Positions 23,288 to 61,354 of a DNA stretch of 64,000 nt are shown in pieces. The stretch is from Chiloscyllium plagiosum (taxonomy: Eukaryota). The stretch lies in NCBI RefSeq assembly GCF_004010195.1, contig NC_057752.1, positions 7,631,651 through 7,695,650 of the forward strand. The letters run 5' to 3'. The notes beneath the pieces were generated by a model, which saw only the letters and a list, made by a program, of their open reading frames with translations, was not told the DNA's origin and did no database searches. Within the stretch, counting starts at the first letter, position 1; every line of letters starts with the position of its first letter. The position numbers and the translations under genes were made by a program.

Positions 23288-23299
23288 TATAAACAGGAG

Positions 23300-25237: not shown

Positions 25238-25250
25238 TATAAACCGGAGT

Positions 25251-25569: not shown

Positions 25570-25697
25570 ATAAATAGGAGTGGTTCTGTTCACTCTGAGA
25601 GCTGGCTCTGAGGGAGCTGGATCAGTGTCAAGGACTCTCTACTTGTAAATAAAGGGTGACTTGATGACGGGATACCAACCTCTGTGGAGTTATTTCA

Positions 25698-28689: not shown

Positions 28690-29960
28690 CACTTAATGTA
28701 GCTGAATTCTATCATGGACAATGACAGCTTCTTCCTCCTCAATGTTCTTATCCCTCTCCTCAGATGACTGCTCCTGTTCCCTCAGTCCCTCAACATTTGT
28801 TACATCACCTCATTGCTCGCTCCAATTATGCAAAGCACAGCACGTCAGAATGATGTTACAAGTTCCCCTCCAAACTATTCATCATCCTGACTTGGAAATA
28901 TGTTGCTGTTCCTTCAGTGTCACTGGATCACAATCCTTGAATTCCTTCCCGAACAAAGTTGTGAGTCTACCTACAGCATGTGGACTGTAGTGGTTCAAGA
29001 AGACAGCTTACCACACCTTCTCATGGGGCAACTCAGGATGGCCAATAAATGATGGCCCAGCCTGTGATGCTCACATTCCATGAATGAATTTTTAAAAAGT
29101 CTGTCTGGACGATATTGGAGCTCCCCCTAACCCAGACCAGTCCAAGCAGCAGAACTGCATCTTCAACAGCCCTATAGTGTGCTCTACTATGGCCTTGGTT
29201 GAGACATGGGCGGTACTAAACCTGTGCTCTGCATGAATCAGTGGTTTGCACAATGGTGTCATGAGCCATGGTTGCAGTGGGTAGCCCTTGTACAATGTTC
29301 TGTCTGCTCTGAGGCTCTGTGCATGCTGATTGGCCTGCCAGCATATTGACTTCTGGGTTTGAAAGCCACTGACACACACACAGACCTTGGAAGTGTGCAC
29401 AGTGAATAAACAATGAAAGGGAGTGCTGCCTTTGCAACTCAGTAACCAGCCTTGCAATGCTCCTGGACCGTCAAGCACATCAGATATCTGGGAGCGCTCA
29501 GGATGTAGGAGTTGGGGCAGCTGCCAGGGTAGTGGGCAGACACTTCCAGGAAGTGGGAATGGTGATCACAGATCACCTGAACATGAAAGGAGTGGAATGG
29601 AATCCCTTCCTGTTGATGAACTCCACAGCATAGTGCCACGTGCGTGCAGCCGATGGCACCCTGCAGATGGAGGAAGGCAACTATGTTCCCAAATCTTACC
29701 CTGACTAACAACCACCTCATCATGGAGAAATAAAATGAACCGGTGTGATCTTGCAGAGATGGTATTAGTATTCACAACCACTAGAAAAGGATAGCCTGCA
29801 GGCCAGAAAGAAATTCCTGTAGGTTTCAGGTCCCATTCCAGAATCCAGCAAAATGCAGTCCCAGTGTCCTGGGACTTACAGAGCCTGCTCATCCTCAGGA
29901 AATGGAGTTGGGGTGGGAAAACGCTGGCCCTCCTGCGCACCTCACACATCCTGAGGGACC
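28690..29960 (-). mobile_element. PIF/Harbinger transposase remnant, with a LINE tail inserted at ~28860-29095
   Basis: QGAIGCTHVAL, FHSFHVQVICDH, YPGSCPNSYIL, GYPLQPWLMTP, AHVSTKAIVEHTIGLLKMQFCCLD and IILTCCALHN are HARBI1-like DDE motifs. Confidence 0.82.
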
Positions 29961-34351: not shown

Positions 34352-35626
34352 TAGTTGTCGGTTTGCTCAGCATATCTGGTTGGTTTGTTCTCAGACGTTT
34401 TGTCACCATGCTAGGTGACATCATCAGTGAGCCTCTAGTGAAGCTTTGGTGTTCTATCATAGAGTCATAGAGATGCACAGCATGGAAACAGACCCCCTTG
34501 CCGACCAGATATCCCAACCCAATCTAGTCCCACCTGCCAGCACCCGGCCCATATCCCTCCAAACCCTTTCTATTCATATACCCATCCAAATGCCTCTTAA
34601 ATGTTGCAATTGTACCAGCCTCCACCACTTCCCGCTTGCTATTTTTGTGTCTTGGCTTGTTCTAGTGGGTGGTATCATTTCCAGTTCTGTTTCTGAGTGG
34701 TTAGTGAATGGGGTCCAAATCTATATATTTCTTAATGGAGTTCTGGTTTGAATGCCAGGCTTCCAGGAATTCCCACATGTCCCTTTGTTGAGCCTGTCCC
34801 AGGGTGGATGCATTGTCCCAGCCAAACTGGTGTCCCTCTTCATCTGTGTGTTTGGATACCAGTGATAGTTGGTCATGTCTTTTGGTGGCTAGTTGGTGCT
34901 CCTGGTGGCTAGTTTCCAGCTCGTTTGTCCAATATAATGTTTGTTGCAGTCCCTGCAGGGTATTTTGTATTTAACGTTCGTTCTGCTAGCTGTGGGTACA
35001 GGGTCCTTTAAATTCATCAGTAGCTGTTTCAGTGTGGTGGTAGGTTTGTGAGCTACCATGATGCCAAGGGGCCGGAGCAGTCTGGCTGTCATCTCTGAAA
35101 TGTCTTTGATGTACGGTAAGGTGGCTAGAGTCTTTGAGCATGTTGTCCCTTCCTGTTTTGGTATGTTGTGCAGGAATCGGTGGACTGCGCATATCGGGTA
35201 ACCGTTGTTCCTGAATATGTTGTATAGGTGTTTCTCCTTGGCTTCTCATGGTTCCGGGGTGCTGCAATATGTTGTGGTTGTCCAGATGCAGCTCTGTTTG
35301 TGGGTGTTGGGATGGTTGCTCCTGTAGTTGAGTATCTGGTCCGTGTATGTAGCTTTCCTGTAAACGCTGGTCTGCAGTTCTCTATTGGCTTTGCATTCTA
35401 CCATGACGTCCAAGAAGGGGAGTCGGTCATTGTTCTCTTCCTCTTTGGTGAACTTTATACCAGTCAGGATGTTGTTTGTGTTTTGGGTTTCTCCTAGTTT
35501 GTCGCATTTCATGGTGACAAAGGTGTCATCCACATAGCGCACCCAAAGCTTTGGTTGGATTGCGGGAAGGGCTGTTTGTTCTAATCTCCACATAACTGCT
35601 TCTGCTGTAAGTCCTGACATTGGTGA
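34352..35626 (-). mobile_element. Penelope-like element, inverted 3' half (RT core to GIY-YIG and pLTR)
   Basis: SPMSGLTAEAVM...WVRYVDDTF...LPFLDV...SVYRKATYTDQILNY.SNHP; YKIPCRDCNKHYIGQT; a CR1 tail is inserted at ~34455-34632. Confidence 0.92.
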
Positions 35627-37603
35627 TTGGCTGCAGAATGCTATGAGAAATGAGAAATGATGCCCACAACTGACTCCACAAATACAAACGAGAAATTTCA
35701 CACCAAAAAACTCTACACTAACGTGATCAACCACGAATGGACAAGTATGCTGGAACAAGCCATCAGCATTAAACAACAGCAGACCAGGACAAAGAAAGGA
35801 CTGGCCCTACAAGAGAAACTAACCAAGCTCACACACAGCAACAATACAGATAAATCAGAGACCTGGGATAAAGAACTTATCTGACCGACCACTTACAGAA
35901 ACTGAAAAGCTGTTCTAGTACGAAAGCTGAACTACAACTGCAGGGATGTGGACAAAAAGGACTTCCTAGCAGCACTGGAATCCACACTAAAAGACAACGG
36001 ACTTACAGAAGATACTCTGTAGGACATCAGACAGATGGTAGCATCCACACTAAGCAGAAAGAAAGAAGGGAACACCCTCAACACACTGGAAAGGAAAGCT
36101 CTGGAAAGACTCAGAAAAGACAGAAATATTGTAATTCTACCTGCGAACAAAGGGCACATGACCGTCATCCTGAACAGAACACAGTATGATGAAAAAGTGA
36201 ACACACTACTAACCGATCCTGACACCTACCAACAGGTGGTGATGGACCGGACTCCACAGCTAGAAAACCACATCCCTAAGGAAACTACACAAGACAGGTG
36301 AAATTAACAAGACAGATCCCCAAAGGATGAAACCAGAAGGACCCAACACACCCTGCTTCTACGGATTACCAAAGGTACATATCCAAGGGGTCCCCCTCAG
36401 ACCCATAGTCTCAGTTCCCAGCATACCGACATACAGGCTAGCAAAGGAACTGCAGCGAAAACTGAAACACCTGGTAGAAGACTCAATCCACTTCATCCGC
36501 TCCACCCAGGAATTCCTTCACATCATCAAAGACACCAAGGTAGAGGACGACAAGATCATAGTCTCCTTCGATGTGACGGCCCTATTTACATCAATAAGTG
36601 TCACCCAAGCTAAATAAGCACTGGCCTCACTGCTGGACAAACCAGGGATACAAACACCTGACAGTGCCAACTCCAACAGCAAGGACAGTATCCTCAAACT
36701 ACTGGACCTGTCCCTCACAACTCACTTCACATTCAACGACAAGATATATAAACAGATCACCAATGACCACCCCAATGCCCACAAACAGAGATGCATCAGG
36801 ACATTATTTAAATGAGCCACAACACACTACAGCACCCAGGAACTACGAGAAGCCAAGGAGAAACACCTATACAATATATTCAGGAACAACAGTTACCCGA
36901 TAAGCATAGTCCACCGATTCCCACACAACGGACCTAACCATGAAGACACAACATACCCAGAGACTCTAGCCACCTTACCGTACATCAAAGACATTTCAGA
37001 GATGACAACCAGACTACCGCCGGCCCCTAGGCATCATGGTAGCCCACAAACCTACCACCACACTGAAACAAATGCTGATGAATTTAAAGGACCCTGTACC
37101 CACAGCCGGCAGAACTAATGTTAAATACAAAATACCCTGCAGGCACTGCAACAAACATTATATTGGACAAACGGGCAGGAAACTAGCCACCAGGAGCACC
37201 AACTAGCCACCAAAAGACGTGACCAACTATCATCAGTATCCATACACAGACGAAGAGGGACACCAGTTCACCTGGGGCAATGCATTTACCCAGGGCCAGG
37301 CTAAACAAAGACACGTGCAGGAATTTCTGGACGCCTGACATTCAATCTGCAACTCCATTAACAAACATATAGATCTGGATCCCATTTACCAACCTTCAGA
37401 AACAGAACTGGAAATGATACCACCCGCTAGAACAAGCCAAGACACACACATAGCAGGCGGGACAGAACACAACGCTTCACCGGAGGCTCACTGATGATGT
37501 CACCTAGCATGGTTACGAAATGTCTGAGAACAAACCCACCAGCTCAGCAAGCAAACCGACAACCTGATCCACAACTTCAGCTACAAATCTTTTCCAAGAT
37601 CTC
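35627..37603 (+). mobile_element. Penelope-like element (RT + GIY-YIG), degenerate, RT core deleted
   Basis: NIVILPANKG, FYGLPKVH...PLRPIVS, VSFDVTALFTSI, YKIPCRHCNKHYIGQTGR; hammerhead core at 37487-37528. Confidence 0.92.
37487..37528 (+). ncRNA. Minimal type I hammerhead ribozyme motif (Penelope pLTR)
   Basis: CTCA-CTGATGA-TGTCACC-TAGCAT-GGTTAC-GAAA-TGTC-TGAG: stem I CTCA/TGAG, conserved CUGAUGA and GAAA boxes, GUC cleavage triplet; mirror copy at 34390-34431 (-). Confidence 0.75.
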
Positions 37604-38695: not shown

Positions 38696-39034
38696 GGTTG
38701 AATGTAGCTATTTGTATGCCACTGGGAGTCTGCGTTGAAAGCTGCACAACTGAAAAACAAAAGGCATACAATTAGATGAAACCTTGCAGACTCTTGCACG
38801 ATAAATCCCAAGTACAGGAGATTCAGTTTTCTTGTCTTCAGACAGCACTTTTTTAATGGAAGCATTTCTCATTTGACAAATTGGCTTTTCTTTCAGAATA
38901 AAAGCACACAATCCAAACGCTTGCTCTATGCAATTGTATTCGATGCTGTTGAGAAAAAGATACACCTGAAGTTAATACGATCCTGCATACTGTACACTAA
39001 TGAGACATCACTATCAAATCAAATGTTTTTTTAA

Positions 39035-39124
39035 CCTTTTCGAGGACTGTAGTAATACTGTCATCCCTATAGATTTTTTATATATATATAGGGATGACAG
39101 TATTACTACAGCCCTCAAAAAGGT
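39035..39124. mobile_element. Palindromic mini-MITE, piggyBac-like
   Basis: ~37-bp inverted arms CCTTTTCGAGGACTGTAGTAATACTGTCATCCCTATA / TATAGGGATGACAGTATTACTACAGCCCTCAAAAAGG, with TTAA on both sides (39031-39034 and 39125-39128). Confidence 0.65.
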
Positions 39125-40791
39125 TTAAAAATGATTTGGAGAAAGAGGGAGCATTTTATATATACTCCCTCTTTCTCCAAATTCAATATAAATTCATAGC
39201 AGGTGGAATTTAATGGAGTAAAATGTACACTATTACATAGAGGAAGGAAAAATGCAAGCAAATGTACTTGACGATACAGTTGAAAGAAACTAAGGGCACT
39301 GAGGAGTCTGATCCAGCATACAACAAAGCCAATCAAATATTGATTAGTGTTACCCAAACTGTCAGCTACCAGCCAAAGGATGTTACATATGATCAAACTG
39401 TACAGTCTGTTTGCATGTTGAGCACTGTGTTAAAGATTATAATTTTTAAACAAACCACTTCCTATTCTCACCACTTATAAGCAGACTGATTTCATTTTTC
39501 CCCTTCTTTGCAAAAAAAGTGTGGGGGCTCGACGTTACGGGTATAAGCCCTTCATCAGGATTTGAGACTCTCCTGCTCCTCGGATGCTGCCTGACCTGCT
39601 GTGCTTTTCCAGCACCACACTCTTCAACTCTGATCTCCAGCGTGTGCAGTCCTCATTTTCTCCTAAAGCAATAGTGGGTGTATTTTCTCCATTCTTTCTA
39701 TTTGTGGACCCTGACTTCATAAGAACCTGAAAAACATTGTTGTAATGTTAAATCAGAAGTAGGGTAAATTTCACACATTTTTAGATGTAAGGAAATACTT
39801 TGCAATGTATGTAACTTTATCTTCTGGTTCACAGTTTTGAGAAAAGTTGATTACTTGCAGAGAGCACAAACTCAAGCTCTTGGATACTTTTTGCAGGTCA
39901 GAGGCTTTTCCATTGCAGCCTAAGTTTGGAAGTTTTGATATTGTCGGTAGATGTCATACAGAGCAGGTTGATTCCTTAACTGACTGCTGTTTCAAAAGCA
40001 TGTGGACATGAGGCAATTGGATTCAGAACTGTGGGAGTCATGTGACCAAGCCTTCTTGTGGAGATGAAACAGTTACCATCAAGACAAAGGTTTGCATTGA
40101 AGATGGCTAAATGTTTGTGGCCCATTTCAGAGGGGAAGTGGAAAGCCGGTAGTACATTTTCTTACAGGGTAGGGATTTTTTTTCTTGGAGATTCCTCTGT
40201 TGCTGAAGCAGATTGGAACACAATACCTCCCATTCCAGTCCCATTAGGAGGTACATGAGATGTTCATCATCTGGCTGATTTTGGCTTCTGANNNNNNNNN
40301 NNNNNNNNNNNNNNNNNNNNNNNNNNNNNNNNNNNNNNNNNNNNNNNNNNNNNNNNNNNNNNNNNNNNNNNNNNNNNNNNNNNNNNNNNNNNNNNNNNNN
40401 NNNNNNNNNNNNNNNNNNNNNNNNNNNNNNNNNNNNNNNNNNNNNNNNNNNNNNNNNNNNNNNNNNNNNNNNNNNNNNNNNNNNNNNNNNNNNNNNNNNN
40501 NNNNNNNNNNNNNNNNNNNNNNNNNNNNNNNNNNNNNNNNNNNNNNNNNNNNNNNNNNNNNNNNNNNNNNNNNNNNNNNNNNNNNNNNNNNNNNNNNNNN
40601 NNNNNNNNNNNNNNNNNNNNNNNNNNNNNNNNNNNNNNNNNNNNNNNNNNNNNNNNNNNNNNNNNNNNNNNNNNNNNNNNNNNNNNNNNNNNNNNNNNNN
40701 NNNNNNNNNNNNNNNNNNNNNNNNNNNNNNNNNNNNNNNNNNNNNNNNNNNNNNNNNNNNNNNNNNNNNNNNNNNNNNNNNNNNNNNNNNN

Positions 40792-40929
40792 ATGGCGGTG
40801 GCCACATACCGGACGTCTACCGCTTCCCTGCTCGCTATGTCCTGCGGTAGCGTCCAGCCCAGGCCCTCGGCACCCAGCACCTCCCCGACCCTGGTCACCC
40901 TCGCTGCCACGGCCCTCCCCTCCGACAAC
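40792..40929 (-). mobile_element. 5'-truncated Tx1-clade-like LINE ORF2 fragment inserted in the Gypsy B 3' LTR (continues into gap)
   Basis: GC-rich open frame LSEGRAVAARVTRVGEVLGAEGLGWTLPQDIA..., resembling the post-RT 'G.TRV.DLL....W' region of Tx1/L1-type ORF2; starts right after GATATAAACAGGAGTGT. Confidence 0.55.
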
Positions 40930-43900
40930 ACACTCCTGTTTATATCTGTCAGCCAGGGCTCCCTGATTGGACCAGCTTAACAGCCCCAATCAGGGAACTC
41001 ATATTCTATGCGGTCCACTTGGCTGACCTTGTCACAATCACTACATCCCTCTTCTTCTGTGTCTGAGAACATAGGCCATTTCTTTTCCCTGTATTTCCTC
41101 CTGGGGCATTTTAGCACGGATCAGGTTCCTCTGACTCTGCCTCTGATATGGATGACGTGTAACACACAGTAGTTCACCTCTTGTGCCCAAAGCATCTTGG
41201 AAGAAATTCATTCTCTTCTTCAGGCGGCAAAGGCGTTGAGGTGGCGATATCCATTGTGTCCATCTCAGATTCCGAGGTTTCTTCAACGCTTGATGGAAAG
41301 GAAGAGCCCACAGGTTGTACAACTGTCAGAAAGGCTTTTGAGGAACTGGGCATGTTTTGCTCCTGCACTGTTTGGGAGTTTGCAGCTTTCATATGGTTCA
41401 TGTGCTTGTTCAGGACAGTCGCACCTACCCAAACATTATACATCACTGGACCTGAGCTTGCGTTGATCAGTCCTCTTACCCATGCAGGGCCATTCCTGTG
41501 ATTCTGAAACGAAACTTCATCCCCTGAAGTAAACCGTCTCTCATGCTTGTGTCCAGCACTGGCATTCCTGGTTTCAATTTCGCCCTGCTCCCCCCAGGTC
41601 TGGGAAGATGAGATTTAACTTGGTGCAGAGTCTTCTCCGCATGAGCAACAATGCTGGAGCTATCCCTGTAGTTGTATAAGGGGTGGTCCTGCAATCAAGT
41701 AGAAACTGGGACAGTTTGGTATCTTGAGAAGCTGTAGGCTGTTTCTTCAAGCCAGCCTTCAAAGTTTGGACTGTTACTTCTGCCAGACCATTGGATGATG
41801 GATGGTGTGGAGCTGTCCTTATATGCGAATTCCATTTGACTTTAGGAAATACTCAAATTCCCTGCTGGTAAACAACATCTGTGACTAACACCTCTGGGAG
41901 TCCATGCATTGCTAAAGATGCACACAGTTTTTCTATCATCATCCCTGTATGTGATGAATGAACTCTATGCACGTCCAGCCACTTTCAGTGAGCAACCACA
42001 ATGATTAAGAACAATGACCCCATGAAAGGACCAGCACAGTCGATGTGTAACCAAATCCAGGGTTTATCTGGCCAGTCTCACAAATATGGAGGAGCTGCTG
42101 GTGGTAAATTCTGTCCTTGTTAGCACTCTGGGTACTGCCTCACCAATGCGTCCATGTCTGCATCCAATTCTGGCCACCAGACATAACCTCTCACCACCAT
42201 CTTCATTTTGGACACCCCTGGATGACCCTGGTGGCATTCAGCCAGTATCTGACAGCAAACTTTGCTCGGGACAATCACTCTTGCTCCACATAATAATGTG
42301 CTATTCCCTGACTGTGCTCTGGTCTCTCTGGGTCCAAAAACATTTCAGTTCTATTTGTTTCTCCCATCACCACCAGCTGTTTCAGTTTTGCCAGGACTGG
42401 ATCTTTCTGCGTCCTAAGTCTGATATCGTCAGCTGTAACTGGAAGTGTATCCAGAAAATTTAAAACCATCATGGGCTCTTCTAGTGGCGGTACCACTGGT
42501 GGTGTATCTGCCAATGAGAGGGGGCTCAGTGCATTCGCATTCGCTACTCAGCCTGCCAGACTGTGTTCCAACTTGTAATTATATGCACTTAGTATTAGAG
42601 CCCATTGCTGAATTCAACCTGAAGCTAAGGGTGGCACTGGCTAGTTCTCTTTAATTAAACCAAGTAGGGGTGTGTGGTCTGGTATTATTAAAAATTTCCA
42701 TCCATAAAGGTATTGGTAGAACATCCTGACTCCAAATATGACCGCCATTTCTTTCTTCTCTACCTGGGGGTATTAATGCTCTGCATTAGCCAAAGTCCTG
42801 GATGCATATGTCATTGGGCAGTCCTCTCCACTAGGCCACCTATGAGCTAGTACCACCTTAATACTGTATGGGGAGGCATCATATGTCAATACCAGATCTT
42901 TCTTGGGATCATTGTGGGCCAGCACATTAGAGAATGAGAGCTGTTCCTTTACTTCACTGGAAGCTATGATTTGGCTACACGATCATTTCCAAGATTGACC
43001 CCTTTTTTAGGAATTGGTACAACGGTGCCAGGATGGAGGCCAGGTTATGTATGAACTTTCTGTAATAATTCACCAAACCAAGGAAAGACCTAAGCCCTGG
43101 TACAGATTTGGGAGCCAGGACACCTTTGATCACTCTCATTTTATCTTCCAACAGGTATAACCCGGTCTTGTCAACTCTGTTGCTCACCTTGGGGTGCCTG
43201 AAACATATGTTTTTACCTTCTAAGGTGTTTAAGCACTATGTCCAAAGTGAGAAATGTTTAAGCACTATGTCCAAGTTCTCTAAGGGCTCCTTATTGGTCT
43301 TCCCTGTTATTAGCACATCATCTAGATAAATGGAGACCTGGATAGACCTTGTAAAATGTTGTCCATCATTCACTGAAAAATGGCTCAGGCTGAAGATACC
43401 CCTAAAGGCAGTCTCGTATATTGGGATAAACCCTTATGGTTATTAATTGTTGCATACTACTGGGAATCCTCATCTAACCAAAATTGCAAGTATGCATGGC
43501 AAGCTTTGTGAAGGACAGCTCCCCTTGCCAGCATTGTGTATAAATCCTCTGCGGGAGGGATTGGGTATTTATCCAGCTGTGAAAAGCGGTTTACCATTTG
43601 TTTCAAATCCCCTCAAAGGCGAACCGACTCATCAGGCTTCACAATCGATACGACCAGTGCTGCCCATTCCACAAACTGGATTGGTTTGATGGTTCCTTCA
43701 CTTTCCAGCCTCCTGATTTCTGCCTCTACTTTTGCCCGTGAAGCAAATGGCACCAGGCAGGCCTTGCAGAATCATGGAATTGTTTCCTTGTCAACCTTCA
43801 AGATGGCCTTGGCTCCTTTGATAGTCCTTAGACCTTCCTGAAAAACCTTTGTGTATTTAATTAGGACTTCACTCAGGCAGCCATTTTCTAATCAAAAAAT

Positions 43901-45082
43901 GTTGAGCCAATCAAGGTGAATCTTTCTCAACCAATTCCACCCCATCCAGCTTGGGCCTGAGCCTTTTACTACAATCAGTGGGAACTGAACCAGCTGCTTC
44001 TCATAAGGGACCAGAACCGAAGTTGTACCCTTGATCTGTAAAGGTTCCCCGGTATAGGTTCTCAGTCTAGCCGAGGTCTTGCACAAAGGGCTGGAGTCCA
44101 GAGTGGATTTTGTTAAAGACTGGTTCAGCGATCACTGATACAGCCGTGCCGGTATCAACCTCCATTTGAACCGGGTGACCATTTAACCAGACGTTTATTT
44201 TGATCGATTCTGTTTGGATGTTGCTAAGCAATTTAACTGCTCCAAACCAGATGTAGATAGGCTTTCCAGGGTGTGCACTCTCCTGAATACCGGCCTATGA
44301 ATTATCTTACTCAATTCAGGCCTAGTGGGACTCTTACTGTCTCGAGTCCACATATTGGCAGCAACTACAATGGCTTACCAGCCCAGATCCTGAAGAAGAT
44401 GTTAACCATTTAGCTGAGGCTTGGCTTTGTTCTGGGATTTTGCTGTGGGCTGATCTAGAATCCCTCTGTTCAGGATATGTCCTGAGTGATGCTATGCAAT
44501 TGCCTTCACTCAATTGGTATTCCCTAAGTTCAGTCAGACTGGCGAGGGTGTCCACTTCCATTGGAATACCCTGCAACTCATATGCTCCACTTGCTACATT
44601 TTCTAATACAAAGCCAGTTGTAGGGCCAATTTGAAGTCCAGTTGAGTTTCAGCTAGTAGACACTTTTGCATGGTCACATCATTAATTCTACATACCAAAT
44701 GGTCTCTCAGCATCTCATTTAGGATTAAACCAAAGTCACATGCCTCTGCCAATCATCTTAACCTAGTCAAAACTCTTGAAAAAAGATTCCCTTTGGTATC
44801 AAATTTCTGAGTAAAACCAATAGCATCTCTGAATAAGAGGAGGCTTGGGGTCATAATATCCCTTAACTAAATATGTCAATTCTAGAAAAGGTTTAATGTT
44901 TGGTGCCTCAGGAAACATTAGGCTCCTAATAACTGAAAAGGCTGTGGGTCCACAAGCTGTCAGGAGAATTACTTGTTGCTTTTCATTGCCCCAACGTCAT
45001 TTGCCCAGAAAAGTAACGCATTCTTTTCATATACCGGAAGAGGACTTTGCTGGAGTGCTGTGGGTTTGAAGCAGTGGACGTG

Positions 45083-45131
45083 ATACTTACCTGTGGCCTT
45101 TTGGCTAAGATCAAGTGTCTGTTCTTATCAG
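45083..45131 (+). other. Chimeric U1 + U2 snRNA-derived segment
   Basis: ATACTTACCTG = U1 nt 1-11; GGCCTTTTGGCTAAGATCAAGTGT + CTGTTCTTATCAG = U2 nt 11-34 and 40-52 (vertebrate sequences from memory). Confidence 0.85.
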
Positions 45132-45289
45132 GACAGGGGTCAAGTTGTGAGTCATCAGAGCTAGTGGAGATCATCGCTGGATTGTGATTGGACATTGGAG
45201 GATCGCTTGGTTGTGCTGACCTGCTATTGGTGAATCTTCATGCTGGCTTCGGCCTAACGCCAATTCAGGGACCAGCCAACCTCAGAGCT

Positions 45290-46549
45290 ATGGCCTTAAC
45301 AGCTGCCCGCAGCCCTGGGCAGGAGGTTCGAAACACAGTCCAGGTGTCTGTGAAGAAGGTAGAGGGTCGTACACCGGTGGATTGCATCCTGTTTATTAAG
45401 AAAGTGCTGCTGGGATGCTGTGGGTTCGCTGCAGCGGACGTGGCTGCTGGGATGCTGTGGGTTCGCTGCAGCGGACGTGTACTGCCTGCAGGATTTCCCT
45501 GGGGCAGACTACTTTGATGTGACCTTCAGGAGTGTGAAGCAGTGCGAACAGCTCCTGAAGGTCTTCAAGGAGAAGGAAGGGGAGCCGCTGTTCTCCATCT
45601 TGTCGGCAACCCCATTGTGTGTGCTTCCTGCACAGAGGAATCGGGTTGTTACAATCCATATGTACAACCCCTATGTTCCAGCGGCTGACGTCCTGACCTT
45701 CCTGACGTGGCGGCAGACTGCAAGGTGACCATCTGCAGGAACTGCAAACAGGAGGGTCACCTGACTAAGGACTGTCAGGAAGCAAAGAGCTGCAACCTGT
45801 GCGGAGAGGCGGGTCACATGTACAAGACCTGCCCAAGACGCGGGGGCCCCAGTTGCGCACAGATGGCTGGAGGTGGCAATGTGAGCCGTGGACCCCCAAA
45901 GACCAGTAAGGTCCACACAGACAGCAGGGAAACGGAGTCTGGTGGCACCCAGAAAGAAGAACAGGCCGGAGTGGCAACCAGCGGAGAGACACAGCAGCTG
46001 ATCCTAGCTCTCGCTGGGCAGATGGAAGCAATGGAGGAGGAGGTAATCGAGCAGACAGAGGAGTGGATACCTGTTAAAAACAGGAAGAGAAAATCCGGCC
46101 AGGCCCCCAAAGCCTCCCAGCAAAGGGGGAAAAGACAGCTGAACGAGGGAGGGACGGCCAGCTCTTCAGATGTGGAAGACGGGCGCACAGAATGTCATCA
46201 CCACCAGAAGAAGAGACAGAGCGCCATAGCTAAAGAGGAGGGCATCTCCTCCCAACCAGGAAACAACAGACCCCCCGAAGTCCACCTTCCACCCAATGAG
46301 AACCAGGGGGTACCCACTGCCCCACAACTACAGACAACTGAGAGCTGTGATCCTCTGACAGTCCCATTGTCAGACACAGAACTGGACGGTGCGGACCCTT
46401 GCCTTGGCTCGATGACTCCAGAGCAGGTAAATGACCCCAGTGAGAGCCTGGATAGCTACCTCAGCCCAGCGAGGGTCCAGCAGTTCGTGCTCACCATGGG
46501 GATGCAGACAGGTACCCCAGATACAGGACAGTCAAATGGACAACGGTAA
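45290..46549 (+). pseudogene. Tx1-type ORF1 / ZCCHC3-like zinc-knuckle protein, frameshifted
   Basis: MALTAARSPGQEVRNTVQV...DVYCLQDFPGADYFDVTF...VTIHMYNPYVP; CRNCKQEGHLTKDC and CNLCGEAGHMYKTC (CX2CX4HX4C); 37-bp duplication and an internal deletion near 45705. Confidence 0.82.
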
Positions 46550-46976
46550 CCCCATAAACTGGGATTAAAAAAGGTTCATTTGCTATAGTATAACAGGGCA
46601 CCCACTCAGTAGGTGGGTTCTGCTGAAGCCACAGCTAAATAATAAGAGACTGGGAATAATAATAAAGGGAACTGTAAATAGGATAACTGTAAATTCGAGT
46701 AATTCAATCTGTTCTTTGTAATGTTAAGACATGCAAAGTTTATATCTATGAATGACATGACAAATTGTACAAGTACCAAAGATTTATTTCTAAGAATAAA
46801 ATATATTTTGAAATATAAAAAAAATTCTTTCCATATACTGGGCCCAGTCTTTGATGGCAGGATTGAACGAGTCAAGCTTCCCAAACGATGGCATGATGCC
46901 AGAAATGCTTATCACAACTTAAAGACAATTGTTGCGAGTGAATCTCTTCAGGAGTGTGCTTTTCACTTGTTGCCAC

Positions 46977-47212
46977 TGAAATAACTCCACAGAGGCCGGT
47001 ATCTCATCACTAAGTCCCCCTTTATTTACACATGGAGAGTCCTTGACACTGATCCAGCTCCCTCAGAGTCAGCTCTCAGAGTGAACAGAACCTCTGACCC
47101 TCCTGTTTCTATCTGTCAGCCAGGGCTCCCTAATTGGACTAGATTAACAGCGCCAATCATGGAACTCATATTCTATGAGATCTACCTGGCTGACCTCGTT
47201 ACAATCATCACA
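46977..47212 (-). repeat. Intact (empty) Gypsy LTR, 236 bp
   Basis: TG...CA termini, AATAAA, adjacent PBS; reference copy for the interrupted LTRs. Confidence 0.9.
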
Positions 47213-51465: not shown

Positions 51466-51970
51466 ATTGTCCTAACTCGCCAGCAATTTTTTAAAAAAGA
51501 ATTATTTTCATGGTATCTCGGTCAGGAAAAAGCCAGATGCGAAATAATGAGACTTGCTGCTACCATGGATCATTGGGCTGGCACATCCAATGACTCAGTT
51601 AGTCAACTGTGGCCACACTTGAGGTTTCCATTCCCTTAATTTCTGTCCATCACTTTTACATCCAAGCCACTTCAGAATTGATCCAATTTTTCCACTCCGT
51701 CCACTAATGTGCTCTCTTTGCCAGTTACAGCCAATGCAAATAAGCAAACCAAGGATGTGTACTCTGAGCACATTATTAGTCAGTGGTGTCAGAGCCATTT
51801 TTTAAATCATGCCCGATTTGTTTATGCTAGTAGAGGAGAATCAGCTCCCCCTGTTTACTGAATAAATAAAATACAGTCTGGGAACTGAAATAACTCCACA
51901 GAGGCTGCTATCACGTCAGCATGTCATCCTTTATTTACAGATGAACAGTATCACTGACACTCCTATTTAT

Positions 51971-53701
51971 TTTTTTAAATTTTATTAAACATTTACAAAA
52001 GAGTTTACAGAAAAACAGTTAACATTTACAGCTGTATACAACAGCAATTTTACAAGGGAGAGGAGCAGCAAAGCCAGGCCCCAAACCCGACCGTTCAACC
52101 AGTTTACAGGGAAATGAGGACAAACCACAAATCCCAGTTTCAAATGTACCAATGTCATTGTTGATGTCTTTGCATAGGAGACAATCCTGTTACATAGGAA
52201 AGTGCAGACAATACAGACCCAGCAAGCCCCCGTGCCTCCCACCTTCCGGCCACTCTAAGGCAGCCCGCCCCTACGCTGCTCCTGGCTCTCGGCCCAGCCC
52301 ATGCCTCTACCAGTTCTTGGTCCACCCTGACACACCTTACAACCACCTCTCGGACAGCCCACCCCCGTACCTGCCCGAGGTGACAGCACTGAGGATGGCT
52401 ACCCGCCTTCTGGCTCTCGGTCTGCCCCTACGTACCATTGGACTCTCACCCACCCCGATGCGCCGTCCGACCAGTGGGCTATCCTGACACACCTTCCGGC
52501 CAGCCCTCTAGGACAGCCCATCCCTTACCTGGGATGACAGCGTGCAGGGTAGCCCACAAACCTTTTGGATCTCAGCCTGCCCCTATGCGCCTTCTGGCTC
52601 TCAGCTGCTCTGACACACCTTCCGACCACCTCTAGGACAGCCTGTCCCGAGCATCCCTTCTCGGGACGACAGTGCTCAGAATGGTCTACCCACCATCTGG
52701 CTCTCGGGGCGACTGGCATCAGGGTGGCCTACCCACCCTCCGGCCCTCAGGGTGACAGCTTTCAGGACGACCCATGAGGCTCCCAGCTCACAGTAAGGCC
52801 TGCCAGACCCAGGGACACACAAGACAGTGCAAGTGATAGACCCAACAAATGCCACAATACAGTTAATTACCAAAAAACACAGAGTCCTTTCTGGTGCACA
52901 CAGAGTCCAGATATAGAGTCTTCAAAGTGTAGAGTCCATTCTCAGGAACAGAGTCCACTCCAGTTTTTGAGGTGCATTGTCCAAAATGGAGTCCACTCCA
53001 AATGGTAGAGTTCACGCCTGAAGGCAGCAAATGCACACCCCACAGCACACAGGTGTTCAGTCTCCACGGAGTCCTGACCCAGCCTTGGAAAACCAGGCCC
53101 ACTCACAGGAACAGTACATTGTACAGGTGCAGTTAACTCACAGGTTTGGTCCACTCCCAAAGGGAAGGTCTTCACCCAAACTCCAGGATACAGCAACTGC
53201 TCACCTCCCAGCGCACACACAGGTGTTCAATCTTCAGAGGCCTAGTCCCAGGGCTAGGCCTCCCCACAGGAACAGCTCCTCTGGTAAAATGTATGTCTTC
53301 CACAAGGGCTCAGTCCAAAACACCAAAAACAGTGAAGACACTTACACAAAAAACAAAGGAAACTAGAGTCCAAGGGCTAAGCCCTACCACAAAATTAACA
53401 TTGTCCTTTTCTCAGAAAGAGAAAGGAGAGAAAAGAGTAACACACAGGCTGTAACCAGCCAGTGAAACAACAGTCCCCTAATGAGAACTGAGCTACACCT
53501 GAAACACATTATGCACATCAGGAGTTTAACAATCAGTCCTCACTAAAAGGAATGCCAGTTAACAAACTGGCTAAATAATTCAGCCAGTTCAGGAATCAGG
53601 TTTCCCCCTCAAAAAAAAGGAAGCAGAAACTAACAGTAACATACTGATTGTAGCACCAACCAGCACAGAGTCAGTCCCCCTAAATTGAGGAGACTCTGAA
53701 T
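51971..53701 (-). mobile_element. Non-autonomous A-tailed element, copy 2
   Basis: Flanked on both sides by ATAAATAGGAG (minus; 53702-53712 and 51960-51970); same head and tail as copy 1. Confidence 0.88.
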
Positions 53702-53976
53702 CTCCTATTTATATCTGTCAGCCAGGGCTCCCTGGTTGGACCAGATTAACAGCCCCAATCAGGGAACTCATTCTATGAGATCCATGTGGCTGACCTCGTT
53801 ACAGTCTGAGGATATACGCTGGTCCTTTTGCTTGGAGAGCCTCCTGGGGCGTTTTAGCACCAGGTCAGGTTCCTCCGACCAGATATCTGACATGGACGGC
53901 ATGTTGCGCCAGGCACGCCTTGGTAGAATTTCTCTCTTTTTCCGGCATCAAACGTATTGAGGTGACTACATCAGTG

Positions 53977-54300
53977 GGCGGCACGGTGGCACAGTGGTTA
54001 GCACTGCTGCCTCACAGCGCCAGAGACCCGGGTTCAATTCCCGCCTCAGGTGACTGACTGTGTGGAGTTTGCACATTCTCCCCGTGTCTGCATGGGTTTC
54101 CTCCGGGTGCTCCGGTTTCCTCCCACAGTCCAAAAAATGTGCAGATTAGGTGAATTGACCATGCTAAATTGCCTGTAGTGTTAGGTGCAGGGGTAAATGT
54201 AGGGGAATGGGTCTGGGTGGGTGCGCTTCAGCGGGTCGGTGTGGACTTGTTGGGCCGAAGGGCCTGTTTCCACACTGTTAGTAATCTAATCTAATCTAAT
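53977..54300 (+). mobile_element. HE1-like V-SINE (tRNA head, V domain, CR1-type tail)
   Basis: GGCACGGTGGCACAGTGGTTAGC...GGGTTCAATTCC; TGTGTGGAGTTTGCACATTCTCCCCGTGTCTGC...GGGTGCTCCGGTTTCCTCCCAC; GGGCCGAAGGGCCTGTTTCC followed by (TAATC)n. Confidence 0.9.
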
Positions 54301-56254
54301 CATGTCCATCTCTGATTCAGAGGACTCGACAACGCTTGATGGACAGAGTGAATCTATGGGCACCGGCAGCATTTCAGAATGGTCTGAGGAGCCGGGCATG
54401 TCTTACTCCCGCACAATTCGCAAAATTGCACCTTTCATCTGGTTCACATGCTTGTTCAGGACCATCGCTGCTAGCCGAATTTTATATGTCACTGGACCTG
54501 ACCTCGTGTTGACCATGCCTCTTACACCAAACTGTCTCTTTCACTTGGGTGGAGTCTTATTTCTGGGATTATTGTTTGTGATGCTTTTTCATCCTCCATC
54601 CCCAGGTCTGGGAAGATCAGAGCTAACCTGGTGCGGTGCCTTCTCCCCATTAGTGACTCTGCCAATGCTATCCCTGTAGTTGCACGAGGGGTGGTCCTAT
54701 AATCAAACAGGAACCAGGACAGTTTGGTAACTAGTGAAACTGTAGGCTGTTTCTTCAATCCAGCCTTCAAGTTTGGACAGCTTTTAATGCCAGGCCATCG
54801 GATGATGGGTGGTATGGAGCCATCCTTATATGTTGAATCCCACTCAACATTAGGAAATACCCATATTCCCTGCTGGTAAGTGATGGCCCATTTTCTGTGG
54901 CCAACAGCTTCAAGACTCCATGTGTAGAAAAAGATGTGCACAGTTTTCCTTCTGTGATCCCAGTGTTTGACGAATGGACCCGATACACGTCCAACCACTT
55001 TGGGCATCTACAATGAGTACGAACATTCAGTCCATGAAAGGACCGGCATAGTCGATGTGCCACTGTGTCCAAGGTTTACCCAATCATTCCCACAGATGTG
55101 GGGGAACTGCTGGCAGTAATCTTTGTTCTTGTTGGCACTCTGGGCACTGCCCCACCAATGTGACTATGTTTATATGTAGACCTGATCACCAGACATAACT
55201 TCGCACCATCATCTTCACTTTGGATACCCCTGGATGGCCCTGGTGGAGATCAGCCAGTGTTTGACAGCAACCTTTGTTCAGGATGATCACTCTCACTCCC
55301 ATAACAATATGTCATCCTCTACCAGGAGCTGGACTCTCTGGGTCCAAAAAGGTTTTGATTCTAGTTGTGACAGGCCTTTGGTTTCCCCATTAATACCAGT
55401 TGTTTCAATTTTGCCAGGGCAGGGTCTTTCTGCATCCAAAGTCCAATCTTGTCAGCTGTGATTGGGATTGTGTCCAGAAAATTTAATCCCTTTACAGACT
55501 CTTCCATTGGGGGTACCACTGATGATGGACCTACTAATGGGAGGGAGCTCAATGCTTCCACATTTGCTAATCGGCCTCCTGGATGGTGGTCCAACTTGTA
55601 ATTACAAGCACTTATTCTTAAAGACCACCGTTGAATGTGGCCTGAAACTATGGGCAGCGCTGCCTTGTCCTCTTTAAGCATACCATGTAAGGGTTTGTGG
55701 TCCGTACTTATCATATATTTTCATCCATAAAGGTTTTGGTGGAATGTACTGACTCCAAATACAACTGCCAATCCTTCTATTTCTATCTGGGCGTATTTAT
55801 GCTTTGCATTCACCCAAGTCCTGGATGCATGCGCTATTGGGCATTCCTCTCCACTGGGCCTCCTCTGATCTAATACCACTTCGATGCTGTATAGGAAGGC
55901 ATTGCACGTCAATACCAGATTTCACTTGGGATCATAAATGTGCCAATGCCTGAGAGGATGATAGCTGTGTCTTCACTTTCCTGAAGACAATGGCTTGGCT
56001 ATGCAACCATTTCAAAAGCTGACCCTTTTTTAAGATGCAAAGATGCCAGGATGGAGGCCAGGTTATGTCTGAACTTTCTGTAATAATTCACCAACCCAAG
56101 GAAAGCTCCAGTACAGATGTGGGAACCAGGACGCCTTTAATCACCCTCACTTTATTTCCAATGGGTGTAACCTGGTTTTGTCGACTCTGTAGCCCAATTA
56201 GGTCACTTGGGGTGCCTGGAACAAATAATTTTCCCTTCTCAGTCATACACCTCA

Positions 56255-57080: not shown

Positions 57081-58331
57081 CTTGCCTTAGAAAAACACCT
57101 TAGGACTACATCCAAGTTCTCTAAGTGTTCCTTATTAGTTTTCCCTGTTATTAGGACATCATCTAGATAAATGACGACCTGCGGTAGACCTTGCAAAATG
57201 CTCTCCATCATCCGCTGAAAAATTAAATAGGCAGAAGTTACCCCAAATGGCAGTCTTGTATGTTGCTACTAACCCTTATGGAAACCCTTCTGGGAACCCT
57301 CATTTAACCACAATTGCAAATACACATGGCTCATATCCAGCTTCATGAAAGACAGCCCACCCCCACCCCCAGCCAGCATTGTGTATAAATCCTCTGTGCG
57401 AGGCATTGGGTATTTACCCAGCTGTGAGAAGCGGTTTACCAGTTGTTTAAAATCCTCACAAAGGCAAACTAACCCGTTGGGCTTCACAATCAGTACAACT
57501 GGTACTGCCCATTCCACAAACTGGATGGGTTTGATGATTCCTTCACTTTCCAACCTCTGATTTCTGACTCTACTTTTGCCCATAAGGCAAATGGCACTGG
57601 ACGGGTCTTGCAGAATCGTGGAATTGCTTCCTGGTCAATATGTAAGGTGACCTTGGCTCCTTTGATAGTCCCTAGACCTTCCTGAAAAACATATAGGTAT
57701 TTAATTAGGACTTCACCCAGGCAGTCATTTTCTAACTGAAAAATGTTAAGCCAATCAAAATGAATCTTTCTCAATTTCCCTCATTAAGCTTGGGCCTGAG
57801 TCTTTTACTACAACCAGTTGTAACTGAACCAGCTGCTTTTGATAAGAGACCGAAATCGAAGTTGTACTCTTAATCTGTAAAGGTTCTCTGGGATCAGTTC
57901 TCAGTCTCGCCGAGGTATTGCACAAACATATGGGTTGGAGACCAAAGTGAATTTTGTTCAAGACTGGTTCTGTAATCACTGAAACGGCTGCGCCGGTATC
58001 AACCTCCTTTAGAGCTGGGTGACCATTTAACCAGACGTTTATTTTGATTGGTTCTGATTTGGATGTTGCTAAGTAATTTAACTGTTCCAGACCAAATGCC
58101 ATGGGCTTTCCAGGGTGTGCACTCTCCTGGATACCAGCTGATGTGTTCTCTTACTCAACTCAGGTCTAATAGGACTCCTTTGCTATCTGAAGTCTGCATA
58201 CTGGCAACAACTACAATGGCTTGCTGTATCCATCACCAAGTCACCCTTTATTGACCGGTCCTTGACTTTTGTACTGCCTCATTCAGAATCAGGCACCAGA
58301 GTGTCAGCATCTCTGCAACTTCTCTTTTTAT

Positions 58332-60420
58332 TATTTTATTAAACAATTACAAAAGAGTTTACAGAAAAACAGTTAACATTTACAGCTGTATACAACAGCA
58401 ATTTTACAAGGGAGAGGAGCAGCAAAGCCAGGCCCCAAACCCTACCGTTCAACCAGTTTACAGGGAAATGAGGACAAACTACAAATCCCAGTTTCAAATA
58501 TGAAAAGACATCAACAATGACATTTCTACATGAGACAATCCTGTTACATAGGAACGTGCAGACAATACAGACCCAGCAAGCCCCCGTCCCTCTAAGGCAG
58601 CCCGCCCCTACTCACCTTCCGGCTCTCGATCCACCCCATGCCCCTTCCAGTTCTCGGTCCGCCCTGACACACCTTACGACCAGCTCTAGGACAGCCCATC
58701 CCGGTACCCGCCCGAGGTGACAGCGGTCAGGACGGCCTACCCACCTTCCGGCTTCACTAACCACCCTCAGCACCTTTCGACCACCTCTCGGACAGCCCGC
58801 CATGATACCTGCCCAGGGTGACACCACTGAGGACGGCTACCTGCCTTCTGGCTCTTGGTCTGCCCCTACGTACCATTGGGCTCTCACCCACCCAAATGCA
58901 CCATCCGGCCTGTGAACTGCCCTGACACACCTTCCAGCCACCTCTAGGACAGCCCGTCCCCTTCCCCAGGGACGACAGCGTGCAGGGTAGCCCATAAGCC
59001 TTCCGGATCTCAGCCTGCCCCTACGCACCTTCTGGCTCTTGGCTGCTCTGACGCCTCCCGACCACCTCTAGGACAGCCCATCCCTTCTCAGGGCGACAGC
59101 GCTCAGAACGGCGTACCCACCATATGGTTCTTGGGGTGACAGCTTTCAGGACGACCCATAAGGCTCCCAGCTCACAGTAAGGCCTGCCAGACCCAGGGAC
59201 ACACAAGACAGTACAAGTGATAGACCCAACTAACACCACAATACAGTTAATTACCAAAAAACAGAGTCCTTTCTGGTACACATTCCAAATATAGAGTCTT
59301 CAAAATATAGAGTCCATTTCCAGGAAGAGTCCACTCCAGTATACGATGTACATTGTCAGAAATAGAGTCCGCTCCAAACTGCAGAGTCCATTGCTAAAAA
59401 CAGAGTCCACAACCGAGGGCAAAGTCCACTCCTGGAGGCAGCAAATGCACACCCCACAGCACACAGGTGTTCAGTCTCAATGGAGTCCTGGCCCAGCCTT
59501 GGAGAGCCAGGCCCACTCACAGGAACACAGTACATAGTACAGGTGCAGTTAACTCACAGGGGTTTGGTCCATTCCTGAAGGAAAGGTCTTCTCCCAAACT
59601 CCAGGATACAGCAANNNNNNNNNNNNNNNNNNNNNNNNNNNNNNNNNNNNNNNNNNNNNNNNNNNNNNNNNNNNNNNNNNNNNNNNNNNNNNNNNNNNNN
59701 NNNNNNNNNNNNNNNNNNNNNNNNNNNNNNNNNNNNNNNNNNNNNNNNNNNNNNNNNNNNNNNNNNNNNNNNNNNNNNNNNNNNNNNNNNNNNNNNNNNN
59801 NNNNNNNNNNNNNNNNNNNNNNNNNNNNNNNNNNNNNNNNNNNNNNNNNNNNNNNNNNNNNNNNNNNNNNNNNNNNNNNNNNNNNNNNNNNNNNNNNNNN
59901 NNNNNNNNNNNNNNNNNNNNNNNNNNNNNNNNNNNNNNNNNNNNNNNNNNNNNNNNNNNNNNNNNNNNNNNNNNNNNNNNNNNNNNNNNNNNNNNNNNNN
60001 NNNNNNNNNNNNNNNNNNNNNNNNNNNNNNNNNNNNNNNNNNNNNNNNNNNNNNNNNNNNNNNNNNNNNNNNNNNNNNNNNNNNNNNNNNNNNNNNNNNN
60101 NNNNNNNNNNNNNNNNNNNNNNNNNNNNNNNNNNNNNNNNNNNNNNNNNNNNNNNNNNNNNNACAGGCTGTAACCAGCCAGTGAAACAACAGTCCCCTAA
60201 TGAGAACTGAGCTACACCTGAAACACATTGTGTGCATCAGGAGTTTAACAATCAGTCCTCACTAAAAGGAATGCCAGTTAACAAACTGGCTAAATAATTC
60301 AGCCAGTTCAGGAATCAGGTTTCCCCCTCCCAAAAAAAGGAAGCAGAAACTAACAGTAACATACTGACTGTAAAACCAACCAGCACAGAGTCAGTCCCCC
60401 AAACTGAGGAGACTCTGAAT
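58332..60420 (-). mobile_element. Non-autonomous A-tailed element, copy 3 (spans gap)
   Basis: Head follows TATAAACAGGAG (60421-60432); tail TTTAATAAAATAATAAAAA; body homologous to copies 1 and 2. Confidence 0.85.
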
Positions 60421-61139
60421 CTCCTGTTTATATCAGTCAGCCAGGGCTCCCTGATTTGACCAGATTAACAGCCTCAATCAGGGAACTCAGAATCTATGAG
60501 GTCCACCTGGCTGACCTCATATCATCACTGCAGGAACAATTTGGCCTGGCCTGGTCATATAGAGGTGTTGAGAATGAAGCTACTGAATACAAAACAATCT
60601 CTGAAATTGCACTACTACTGTTGACTCACTTAGCTATGTAGTCCACTATTTGGTTTTGGCAGAGGTTGTGTAGTAATATGAGTGCACTGAGAGCTATGAA
60701 AATAGCATAATTGAATTAAATATGATGAAAATGGAATTATTATATGGCCTTAAGGCATTTGGAATCACATTTTGTGTTCCTCATTTTTCGTGGCAGCAAA
60801 TACTCAGGAAATAAGTCCTTTTTTGATTTAACTAGCAATTTCTCTTTTGTCTGTGGTGGCCAATCAAATTGTTACTGTACAAGCACACTTGTAGTGACAT
60901 TGTAACTTTGTAATTTACGACTTCTATGTGGTAGCTTTATATATTGGTTGCTACATCCTAACTAATTTTATGGTCAGTTATTCCATCTTGATGATATTGT
61001 GGCATTGTAATTTACAACTTCTAATTAATTATTGAATTGAACTGGGTATACATTAGTATACATTTAGTATACATTTAGAAACTGAGGTGCAAATAAAAGT
61101 TACAGTTAGCTGTATATCACCATTACCCTGCAGGGAGTC

Positions 61140-61336
61140 AGAGCTGAAGATGTGTTGCTGGAAAAGCGCAGCAGGTCAGGCAGTATCCAAGGAACAGGAG
61201 AATCGACGTTTCGGGCATAAGCCCTTATGCCCAAAATGTCAATTCTCCTGTTCCTTGGATGTTGCCTGACCTGCTGCACTTTTCCAGCAACACATTTTCA
61301 GCTCTGATCTCCAGCATCTGCAGTCCTCACTTTCTC
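61140..61336. repeat. Fold-back copy of the Penelope-type short repeat
   Basis: ~80-bp inverted arms meeting at GGGCATAAGCCCTTATGCCC; flanked by the direct repeat CTGCAG(G/A)GAGTCA (61128-61140 and 61337-61349). Confidence 0.85.
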
Positions 61337-61354
61337 CTGCAGAGAGTCACCCTA

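Follow-up and report, generated by a model that had tools for sequence, protein, structure and literature searches.

How a sequence that encodes no protein comes to occupy, several times over, one and the same word in the LTRs of another transposon, and from which RNA it is copied, is the question raised by positions 51971-53701 of a 64,000-nucleotide stretch of the genome of the shark Chiloscyllium plagiosum, referred to here as the window. With moderate confidence, we read this sequence as a poly(A) retroposon, 1.7-2.1 kb long, that neither codes for protein nor moves autonomously; a LINE specific for this target, and most probably a Tx1-clade member, would have inserted it via TPRT at the TATA box of a Gypsy LTR, from read-through RNA.

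Copies and insertion site

Within the window, the non-coding retroposon is present in three copies, located at 23300-25237 on the forward strand (copy A), 51971-53701 on the reverse strand (copy B) and 58332-60420 on the reverse strand (copy C). The original prediction had placed the copies at these coordinates, which are correct. By sequence comparison within the window, A and C are homologous to B, and the three range in length from 1731 to 2089 nt. Copy B, of 1731 nt, sits in the 3ʹ LTR of a decayed Gypsy element and is bounded by identical 11-bp words, ATAAATAGGAG, at 53702-53712 and 51960-51970. These words form a perfect 11-bp TSD in which a T variant is common to both sides. Upstream of B, the U3 remnant (53702-53803, reverse strand) closes on the TATA-box word, with 53702-53712 as the left TSD copy; the downstream flank (51886-51970, reverse strand) consists of the right TSD copy at 51960-51970 and of LTR R-U5 with an internal deletion.

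Copy A is a member of a stacked array in a 5ʹ LTR. Its TSD, TATAAAC[A/C]GGAG, is found at 23288-23299 and 25238-25249, with TATAAACAGGAG and TATAAACCGGAG as the flanking words. The copy contains a foreign insert of ~375 bp (about 24066-24441), presumably Penelope-like and head-to-head, that takes the place of ~230 nt of the element; pieces related to this insert lie near 9353-9394, 34384-34774 and 37320-37563. Copy C lies in the Gypsy element that also harbours B, in its 5ʹ LTR, and spans a gap of 548 N (59615-60162); its left word is present, and its right-hand TSD is degenerate rather than clean.

A fourth head in the window belongs to a 67-nt mini copy at 23221-23287 (forward strand), in which exactly the first hairpin of the element, H1 (35 nt), is fused to the last ~33 nt of the tail. 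This head-plus-tail copy has its own 13-bp TSD (23208-23220 and 23287-23299). Its head is identical to that of C at 34 of 35 positions and to that of the neighbouring A at 31 of 34 and, being nearer to C's, marks a separate insertion rather than a long duplication of A. The structure of the mini copy is compatible with a template jump and also with deletion at a microhomology of 4 nt. TSDs of 11-13 bp flank three of the four copies (B, A and the mini copy), and an A-rich 3ʹ end is found in all four.

These copies are inserted at a word made up of the TATA box and six more bases of a Gypsy LTR of ~235 bp. The window is rich in repeats and holds several decayed Gypsy elements with this LTR, which have Pfam RNase H and protease matches. 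Four of the five LTR copies in the window are interrupted at the TATA-box word, by a total of six insertions: B, C, a LINE-like fragment at 40792-40929, and the three members of the array (the mini copy, A and a second LINE-like fragment). An empty, uninterrupted LTR at 46977-47212 (reverse strand) provides the reference for the target. The array (23108-25697) runs from the U3 of its LTR (23108-23220, forward strand) through the mini copy, a TSD, A, a TSD and the LINE-like fragment to a final TSD copy with R-U5 (25570-25697, forward strand). Within it, a perfect 6-bp palindrome, CCGGAG-T-CTCCGG (25244-25256), is formed where the variant TSD copy meets the first bases of the truncated LINE-like fragment; it may reflect fold-back during 5ʹ joining, or chance.

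Anatomy and coding capacity

From its 5ʹ end (nt 1, at 53701 in B), the element consists of a leader (nt 1-258), ~300 nt of conserved sequence, a minisatellite with a period of ~19 nt, three to four GC-rich units, a hypervariable segment of ~35 nt and, directly downstream of the latter, a tail of ~170 nt; coordinates of these parts in B refer to the reverse strand. The first ~500 nt are strongly conserved, with differences between A and B at 15 of 501 positions. The cluster of GGAGTGGACTC motifs claimed for the body is real and corresponds to the degenerate minisatellite (52882-53018), which has two fewer units in B than in either A or C. Equally real is the claimed variation in the number of GC-rich units containing GGGCTGTCCTAGAGGTGG. 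These tandem units (52262-52772), with periods of 43 nt and 101 nt, number four in A, three in B and four in C, and all 11 matches to the GGGCTGTCCTAGAGGTGG word in the window (at most 3 mismatches) fall inside these copies. The conserved tail (51971-52142) has an A-rich end, and the element's only AATAAA lies at nt 1716.

The element is non-coding, and the absence of a common long ORF, as originally proposed, is borne out by short sense ORFs, stops and frame-breaking indels. The longest sense ORFs beginning with M measure 64 aa in B, 63 aa in C and 95 aa in A, which contains the foreign insert. In B, an antisense frame of 154 aa is interrupted by stops in A and C and has no homologue among 64 candidates, and most indels between copies have lengths that three does not divide. 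Moreover, no frame is supported by a Pfam scan of the 10 element-overlapping frames or by tblastn of 12 frames against the remainder of the window, with no hits in either search.

The element is also not a Pol III SINE. As had been stated for the head, nothing tRNA-like was detected: the element contains no tRNA, and an A/B box is found in none of the three heads examined with a B-box pattern that is positive on a control SINE. Runs of 6-8 T occur at nt 82-84, internal to the element. Lacking a small-RNA-derived head and A/B boxes, containing an internal T-run and not being under ~500 bp in length, the element was rejected as a classical SINE. Membership among the SINEUs was likewise rejected, in this case for lack of a U1- or U2-derived head; no snRNA match was found over 51880-53830 by a search that does detect U2 at 45083. 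In Rfam, no family reached its gathering score on the element, and the best match, mir-194 (E 0.78), is at chance level. Among short words, the G-quadruplex pattern is not enriched (125 of 300 shuffles), GC boxes are weakly enriched (16 of 300) and an ETS-like word is enriched (1 of 300) solely through repetition of the units.

Independent insertion into diverged LTRs

B and C occupy the 3ʹ and 5ʹ LTRs of a single Gypsy element that retains an intact 5-bp host duplication, GTTCC: the copy at 60533-60537, beyond the U3 upstream of C (60421-60532, reverse strand), matches 51881-51885. This arrangement favours an explanation in which the element is simply part of an enlarged LTR that was copied with the Gypsy element, or in which the copies are segmental duplications. 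Such hitch-hiking, to which we give only a very slight probability, is largely refuted by the sequences themselves. The leaders of B and C differ at 8 of 257 positions and the host U3s at 9 of 96 (Fisher p 0.023), and B and C also differ in unit number and in minisatellite length. As the leaders are less diverged than the U3s and the unit numbers differ, the two copies were not copied together with the Gypsy element; they were inserted after the host LTRs had diverged. The GC units of B and C are more diverged (34 differences in 268, 16 of them CpG-type), so that the age contrast rests on the leader. Furthermore, B has its own TSD, an empty LTR is present, and the largest of the junction loose ends listed in contig data is the ordinary R of empty sites.

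A target-like head and a leader with a predicted fold

The head of the element (nt 1-46; 53656-53701, reverse strand) is an in-register homologue of LTR R. Its loose likeness to the LTR sequence that it displaces, pointed out in the original prediction, can be quantified: in all four heads, 25-26 of 34 aligned columns, about 75%, are identical to the displaced R. When anchored, the alignment of head and R scores above every one of 2000 shuffles in A, B and C alike. Unanchored local scores are weak, being reached by 11, 373 and 56 of 2000 shuffles for A, B and C, respectively. The likeness is real but dependent on the position being given.

The head opens a structured 5ʹ leader, which spans nt 1-258 (53444-53701, reverse strand) and comprises a predicted series of tight hairpins. 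H1 (nt 4-36, 53698-53666) has 12 bp and an initiator-like word in its loop; it is followed by H2 (53665-53642), a 12-bp hairpin (53590-53564) and a 32-bp interrupted stem (53551-53474), all on the reverse strand. The changes that separate the head from R build the predicted H1, with fold z scores of -3.6 to -3.9 for the first 60 nt and of about 0 for R itself. The leader as a whole folds strongly on the sense strand (z of -9.3, -6.0 and -7.0 in the three copies) and less so on the antisense strand (-4.9, -3.4 and -4.0). Most later windows of B have z near zero, and as a background only 2 of 62 windows reach z -6, one of which lies on an inverted repeat. Folding of the tail is ordinary (z -1.6), and 12 of its 48 consensus pairs are broken in at least one copy. 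Very stable fold-backs elsewhere in the window are found at 39001-39258 (z -13.9) and 61134-61338 (z -6.5), the latter being an inverted pair of a short dispersed repeat.

Variation among the copies is largely accommodated by the predicted 65-pair leader structure: 12 of 13 variable columns are compatible with it, two pairs change on both sides and one predicted pair is broken in A. Positions 43 and 54 form a U43-A54 pair in B, and C43 and G54 account for 88% and 97% of depth, respectively, in the contig run X1. Covariation of the RNA structure, suggested as a check on the prediction, is not significant over the three copies (119 of 500 shuffles; P 0.07 and 0.11). In B's own minimum-energy fold, H1 is rearranged into a longer stem. 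As modelled, this target-derived hairpin leader is the new feature of the element: an abundant, apparently undescribed RNA leader of 260 nt with a predicted fold.

A fold of this kind could also act by releasing the RNA. The leader would then be a self-cleaving or nuclease-processed RNA that excises the element from read-through transcripts near the U3 junction, comparable to the R2 ribozyme. Co-transcription geometry, uniform junctions, a very stable and sense-biased predicted fold with many G-U pairs (15 of 75) and a 78-nt stem of pre-miRNA size are in keeping with this proposal. It is nevertheless quite improbable, given that no Rfam family is matched at gathering score or at an E below 0.78, that the hairpins are simple with small and variable loops, and that crude HDV-like and hammerhead patterns are absent from all three copies. 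In particular, Rfam and a crude descriptor found no HDV-like ribozyme at or upstream of the 5ʹ junction of the three copies.

The transposing RNA

The insertion site lies between the TATA box and the start that it directs, and consequently a TATA-directed start, an internal promoter and read-through transcription predict three different RNA 5ʹ ends. The family thereby makes the transcription of promoterless retroposons testable, a matter stated as an open question for SINEU-like elements in the account of Kojima (2015, PMC4494074).

According to the original prediction, the element is a promoterless RNA that is transcribed from the LTR U3 and mobilised in trans. Much of this is supported: the element is non-coding and not transcribed as a Pol III SINE, TSDs, A-rich tails, stacking and truncated copies point to TPRT in trans, and the element is tied to its LTR site. 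Not supported in the form proposed is a direct start from the U3 TATA box. Usually, a TATA box lies ~30 nt from the start of transcription. The initiator-like word, located within the H1 loop, lies 27 nt from the TATA box in all four heads and 29 nt in the empty LTR, and at this spacing a TATA-directed RNA would start ~16 nt inside the head and lack nt 1-15. These 15 nucleotides are common to all four heads, unlike the target, and paired in H1, whose 5ʹ arm they form; the transposing RNA must therefore include them, beginning upstream or at nt 1. The RNA of the element thus probably starts upstream of the TATA-directed start.

Joined to a TATA start was the suggestion that the target-like head anneals to the target and helps 5ʹ joining. 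Retention of the initiator-like word in every head with two consensus-compatible changes, together with the homology of head and R, speaks for such a combination. The head, however, resembles sequence downstream of the site, and annealing there would leave target letters at the 5ʹ end, which none of the four heads shows; all four have head letters. The head is accordingly not the apparent annealing part at the 5ʹ junction, its role in joining is unsupported, and a directly TATA-driven RNA with an annealing head has little probability in our estimation.

The flanks of C point the same way as an upstream start. The U3 of C has 4 differences in 98 from the U3 of A and 9 in 96 from that of its sister LTR. 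The R segment downstream of C (58226-58331, reverse strand) differs from the R of A at 27 of 97 positions and from the empty LTR at 27 of 105. C is thus like A in U3 (4/98) and unlike it in R (27/97; p 3.5e-6). Two U3 variants are common to A and C and absent from the sister LTR of C; two other sites group the copies otherwise. Donor U3 may have been carried along with the insertion at C, a single, gap-spanning copy for which recombination or conversion would also be an explanation. In B, whose flanks differ from the empty LTR at 15 of 85 positions in R-U5 and 10 of 102 in U3, carry-over of U3 is not clear. On the C side, the R is ~26% diverged from other LTR copies, unlike its U3, and the stretch from U5 to most of gag is deleted.

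A bolder version joins this carry-over to processing. A promoterless retroposon would have rebuilt the displaced half of the LTR core promoter into a hairpin leader. A new structure, acting in RNA processing or cleaving itself, would release it from read-through transcripts of Gypsy elements or arrays, and every insertion would replace the target U3 with donor U3. We regard this as rather improbable. If true, it would be an R2-like life cycle on a Pol II LTR that inactivates and homogenises host promoters.

In the reading that we favour, retroposition from read-through RNA by a LINE protein, the transposing RNA would be initiated on the upstream side of the TATA-directed start, read through the U3 of a 3ʹ LTR or through a preceding member of a tandem array, and end at the element's poly(A) signal. 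The conserved ~170-nt tail would be the part recognised by the LINE protein, and the hairpin chain could be a domain that stabilises the RNA or binds protein. The cut target would anneal to U3/TSD sequence of the cDNA rather than to the head, giving uniform 5ʹ junctions. The head itself may go back to an unusually long duplication of downstream target, inherited thereafter and reshaped into H1 in the manner of earwig R2.

Contig and RNA runs

In a word search, parts of B were found in 20 listed runs from 10 studies and 4 organisms. No run contained half of B's words, the best share being 0.44, and no RNA run was among the matches listed. Four of 24 runs were aligned to 51850-53830, namely contig runs X1, X11 and X15, which represent three species, and the poly(A) RNA run X21. 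Joints, between-letter rows and loose ends were considered for the best 15 of 802, 12 of 232 and 24 of 2412, respectively. All 30 bins are covered in each of the three contig runs, as for a multicopy family in three species. Summed depth in X1, which is not a copy number, lies at about 1-4 x 10^4 for most body bins vs 4.6 x 10^5 over U3. The family is abundant, yet far rarer than its target LTR. The largest loose ends at the junction, among those listed, are ordinary R, that is, empty sites.

Three informative joints, each at the TATA word, were among those listed for X11: tail-TSD-head, indicating tandem copies; U3 fused to a copy beginning near nt 1440; and tail fused to a copy beginning near nt 1327. 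From the two latter joints, 5ʹ-truncated copies exist and strike the same site. The claim that all copies are full-length at the 5ʹ end therefore holds in the window, for the three copies plus the mini copy, and fails elsewhere, at these two listed junctions.

For X21, about 2 in 100 reads were sampled and 438 reads aligned. Sense reads pile up at the tail (depth up to 73) and through U3 (99 vs 31), and antisense reads adjoin an A-rich stretch. Past the hypervariable segment, 18 reads stay element-like. Nineteen have the last ~170 nt in common with the element and depart at nt 1560 (52142) into a different, T-rich sequence upstream, which is possibly the 3ʹ UTR of the partner LINE or a sister family. 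Oligo-dT priming on genomic A-runs can be a source of the read piles. No cluster of RNA starts or ends was reported in X21, so the proposed mapping of a start site by RNA reads yielded none in this poly(A) run, and 95 in 100 aligned reads continue into unlike sequence. Together with possible internal priming, these observations mean that a dedicated transcript is not demonstrated. Junction and tail patterns had no matches in metagenomes, and the U3 pattern had none in viral contigs.

The proposed partner LINE

The mobilising enzyme is inferred from two 5ʹ-truncated LINE-like fragments at the same LTR word as the element, with which they have in common a target site inside another transposon. 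The fragment in the array (25250-25569, forward strand) has 21 codons, a stop, a 3ʹ UTR and an A tail; the other (U3 and fragment together 40792-41045, reverse strand) comprises U3 at 40933-41045 and a fragment at 40792-40929 with 45 open codons followed by an N gap. Both may belong to the Tx1 clade. The 45-aa fragment has no relatives in protein searches (Atlas best 0.79, no family), so that the Tx1 label is a putative one. A comparison of tails, also suggested originally, was negative in the window: the tail of the element matches neither of the two complete LINE-like tails, including the single complete same-site tail (184 and 54 of 300 shuffles reach the scores).

A second candidate partner, an ORF1-only non-LTR element at 45034-46823 (forward strand), was rejected since both its target and its tail differ. 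This element lies inside an opposite-strand Gypsy gag, encodes a Pfam RBD_ZCCHC3 domain and zinc knuckles, and has a 15-bp TSD with one mismatch and an exact 37-bp tandem duplication in ORF1. Its leader contains a U2-like stretch at 45083-45131 (Rfam U2, E 0.015, below gathering), whose first bases, as we take them, read like U1. It appears to be a second, SINEU/HAL1-like parasite of the same Gypsy family with another target. A non-LTR ORF1 remnant in the window has four homologues, all from Chiloscyllium, with a best identity of 85%.

The family might instead descend from the partner itself, as an internally deleted derivative of an autonomous Tx1 LINE that kept the 5ʹ UTR and 3ʹ UTR and lost its ORFs. 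The leader would then be a 5ʹ UTR with an internal Pol II promoter starting at nt 1, and no upstream transcript would be required. Such an origin would suit the uniform 5ʹ ends of all four heads in the window and the high conservation of the 5ʹ ~500 nt (15 of 501 differences between A and B). As if the tail were common to another family, summed depth in X1 is 3-4 times as high in tail bins as in the best body bins, and 19 RNA reads exit at nt 1560; deletion derivatives are also described for R2 (PMC3414825). Set against this are the lack of any protein remnant (no tblastn or Pfam hits and no homologue of the 154-aa frame), the fact that no listed loose end lies inside the body except at nt 1560, and the tail depth in X11, which is only ~1.4 times that of the best body bin. 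On balance, descent from a deleted LINE is possible but unlikely.

Relation to known systems

The features found in the window and in contig data are those of a TPRT retroposon: TSDs and an A-rich end (degenerate on the right side of C), no coding capacity, multiple independent insertions and 5ʹ-truncated forms. On the best reading, the element would work like SINEU/Tx1-Mar and earwig R2, with no new principle. A literature search, which did not extend to Repbase or Dfam, found no description of the family.

The SINEU-1/2/3 families and Tx1-Mar LINEs of crocodilians are described as poly(A) retroposons without a Pol III promoter that have a target in a transposon in common with Tx1 LINEs (Kojima 2015, PMC4494074). 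The same account reports tandem stacking around the TSD, tails for which often no LINE is known, possible transcription from the flanking target, a 5ʹ extension of SINEU-2B that is weakly like its target, and two crocodilian LINEs, Tx1-8_Crp and Tx1-4_AMi, that prefer LTR retrotransposons (PMC4494074). The shark element is like the SINEUs so described in its target within another transposon, its stacking, the absence of a Pol III promoter, its target-like 5ʹ end and possible transcription from the flank. SINEUs as presented there are mostly under 500 bp, have U1- or U2-derived heads and target Mariner-N4 (PMC4494074). In contrast, the element measures 1.7-2.1 kb, has a target-derived hairpin head and minisatellite blocks, and targets an LTR core promoter.

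Read-through transcription would have a close precedent in earwig R2, in which all 5ʹ junctions are reported to have a 22-bp duplication of downstream target with 3 substitutions (Eickbush et al. 2013, PMC3774820). Annealing of co-transcribed upstream target was proposed in that report to give uniform junctions that propagate such variants (PMC3774820). R2 as described there is autonomous, resides in the 28S rRNA gene and has an HDV-like ribozyme (PMC3774820), whereas the element is non-coding, has a Pol II LTR as host and bears a head of ~46 nt that is ~25% diverged. R2 SIDEs are described as non-autonomous and site-specific, with a structured 5ʹ end and a LINE-recognised 3ʹ end, as co-transcribed with their target and as subject to template jumps (Eickbush and Eickbush 2012, PMC3414825). 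Unlike the element, for which no parent LINE was found, they are presented as shown deletion products of known LINEs (PMC3414825).

In size and build, the element is also like SVA and Sadhu, which are treated in the discussion of PMC4494074 as LINE-mobilised, non-coding retroposons of considerable length (0.9-2 kb) that belong neither to the SINEs nor to the deleted LINEs. In that discussion, some SVA are transcribed from upstream promoters, and neither SVA nor Sadhu is presented as target-specific (PMC4494074). The shark family is a case of a non-coding parasite disabling another transposon's promoter. The anatomy of SVA includes a VNTR, and the element is not expected to be related to SVA or Sadhu in sequence.

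Two further mobile elements were noted in the window. A SINE of the tRNA type that has a B box and is tailed by (TAATC)n, which we take to be HE1-like, lies at 53977-54301, inside the Gypsy element adjoining B. At 29095-29771 (reverse strand), a remnant of a Harbinger-type transposase (Pfam DDE_Tnp_4) is present in two frames.
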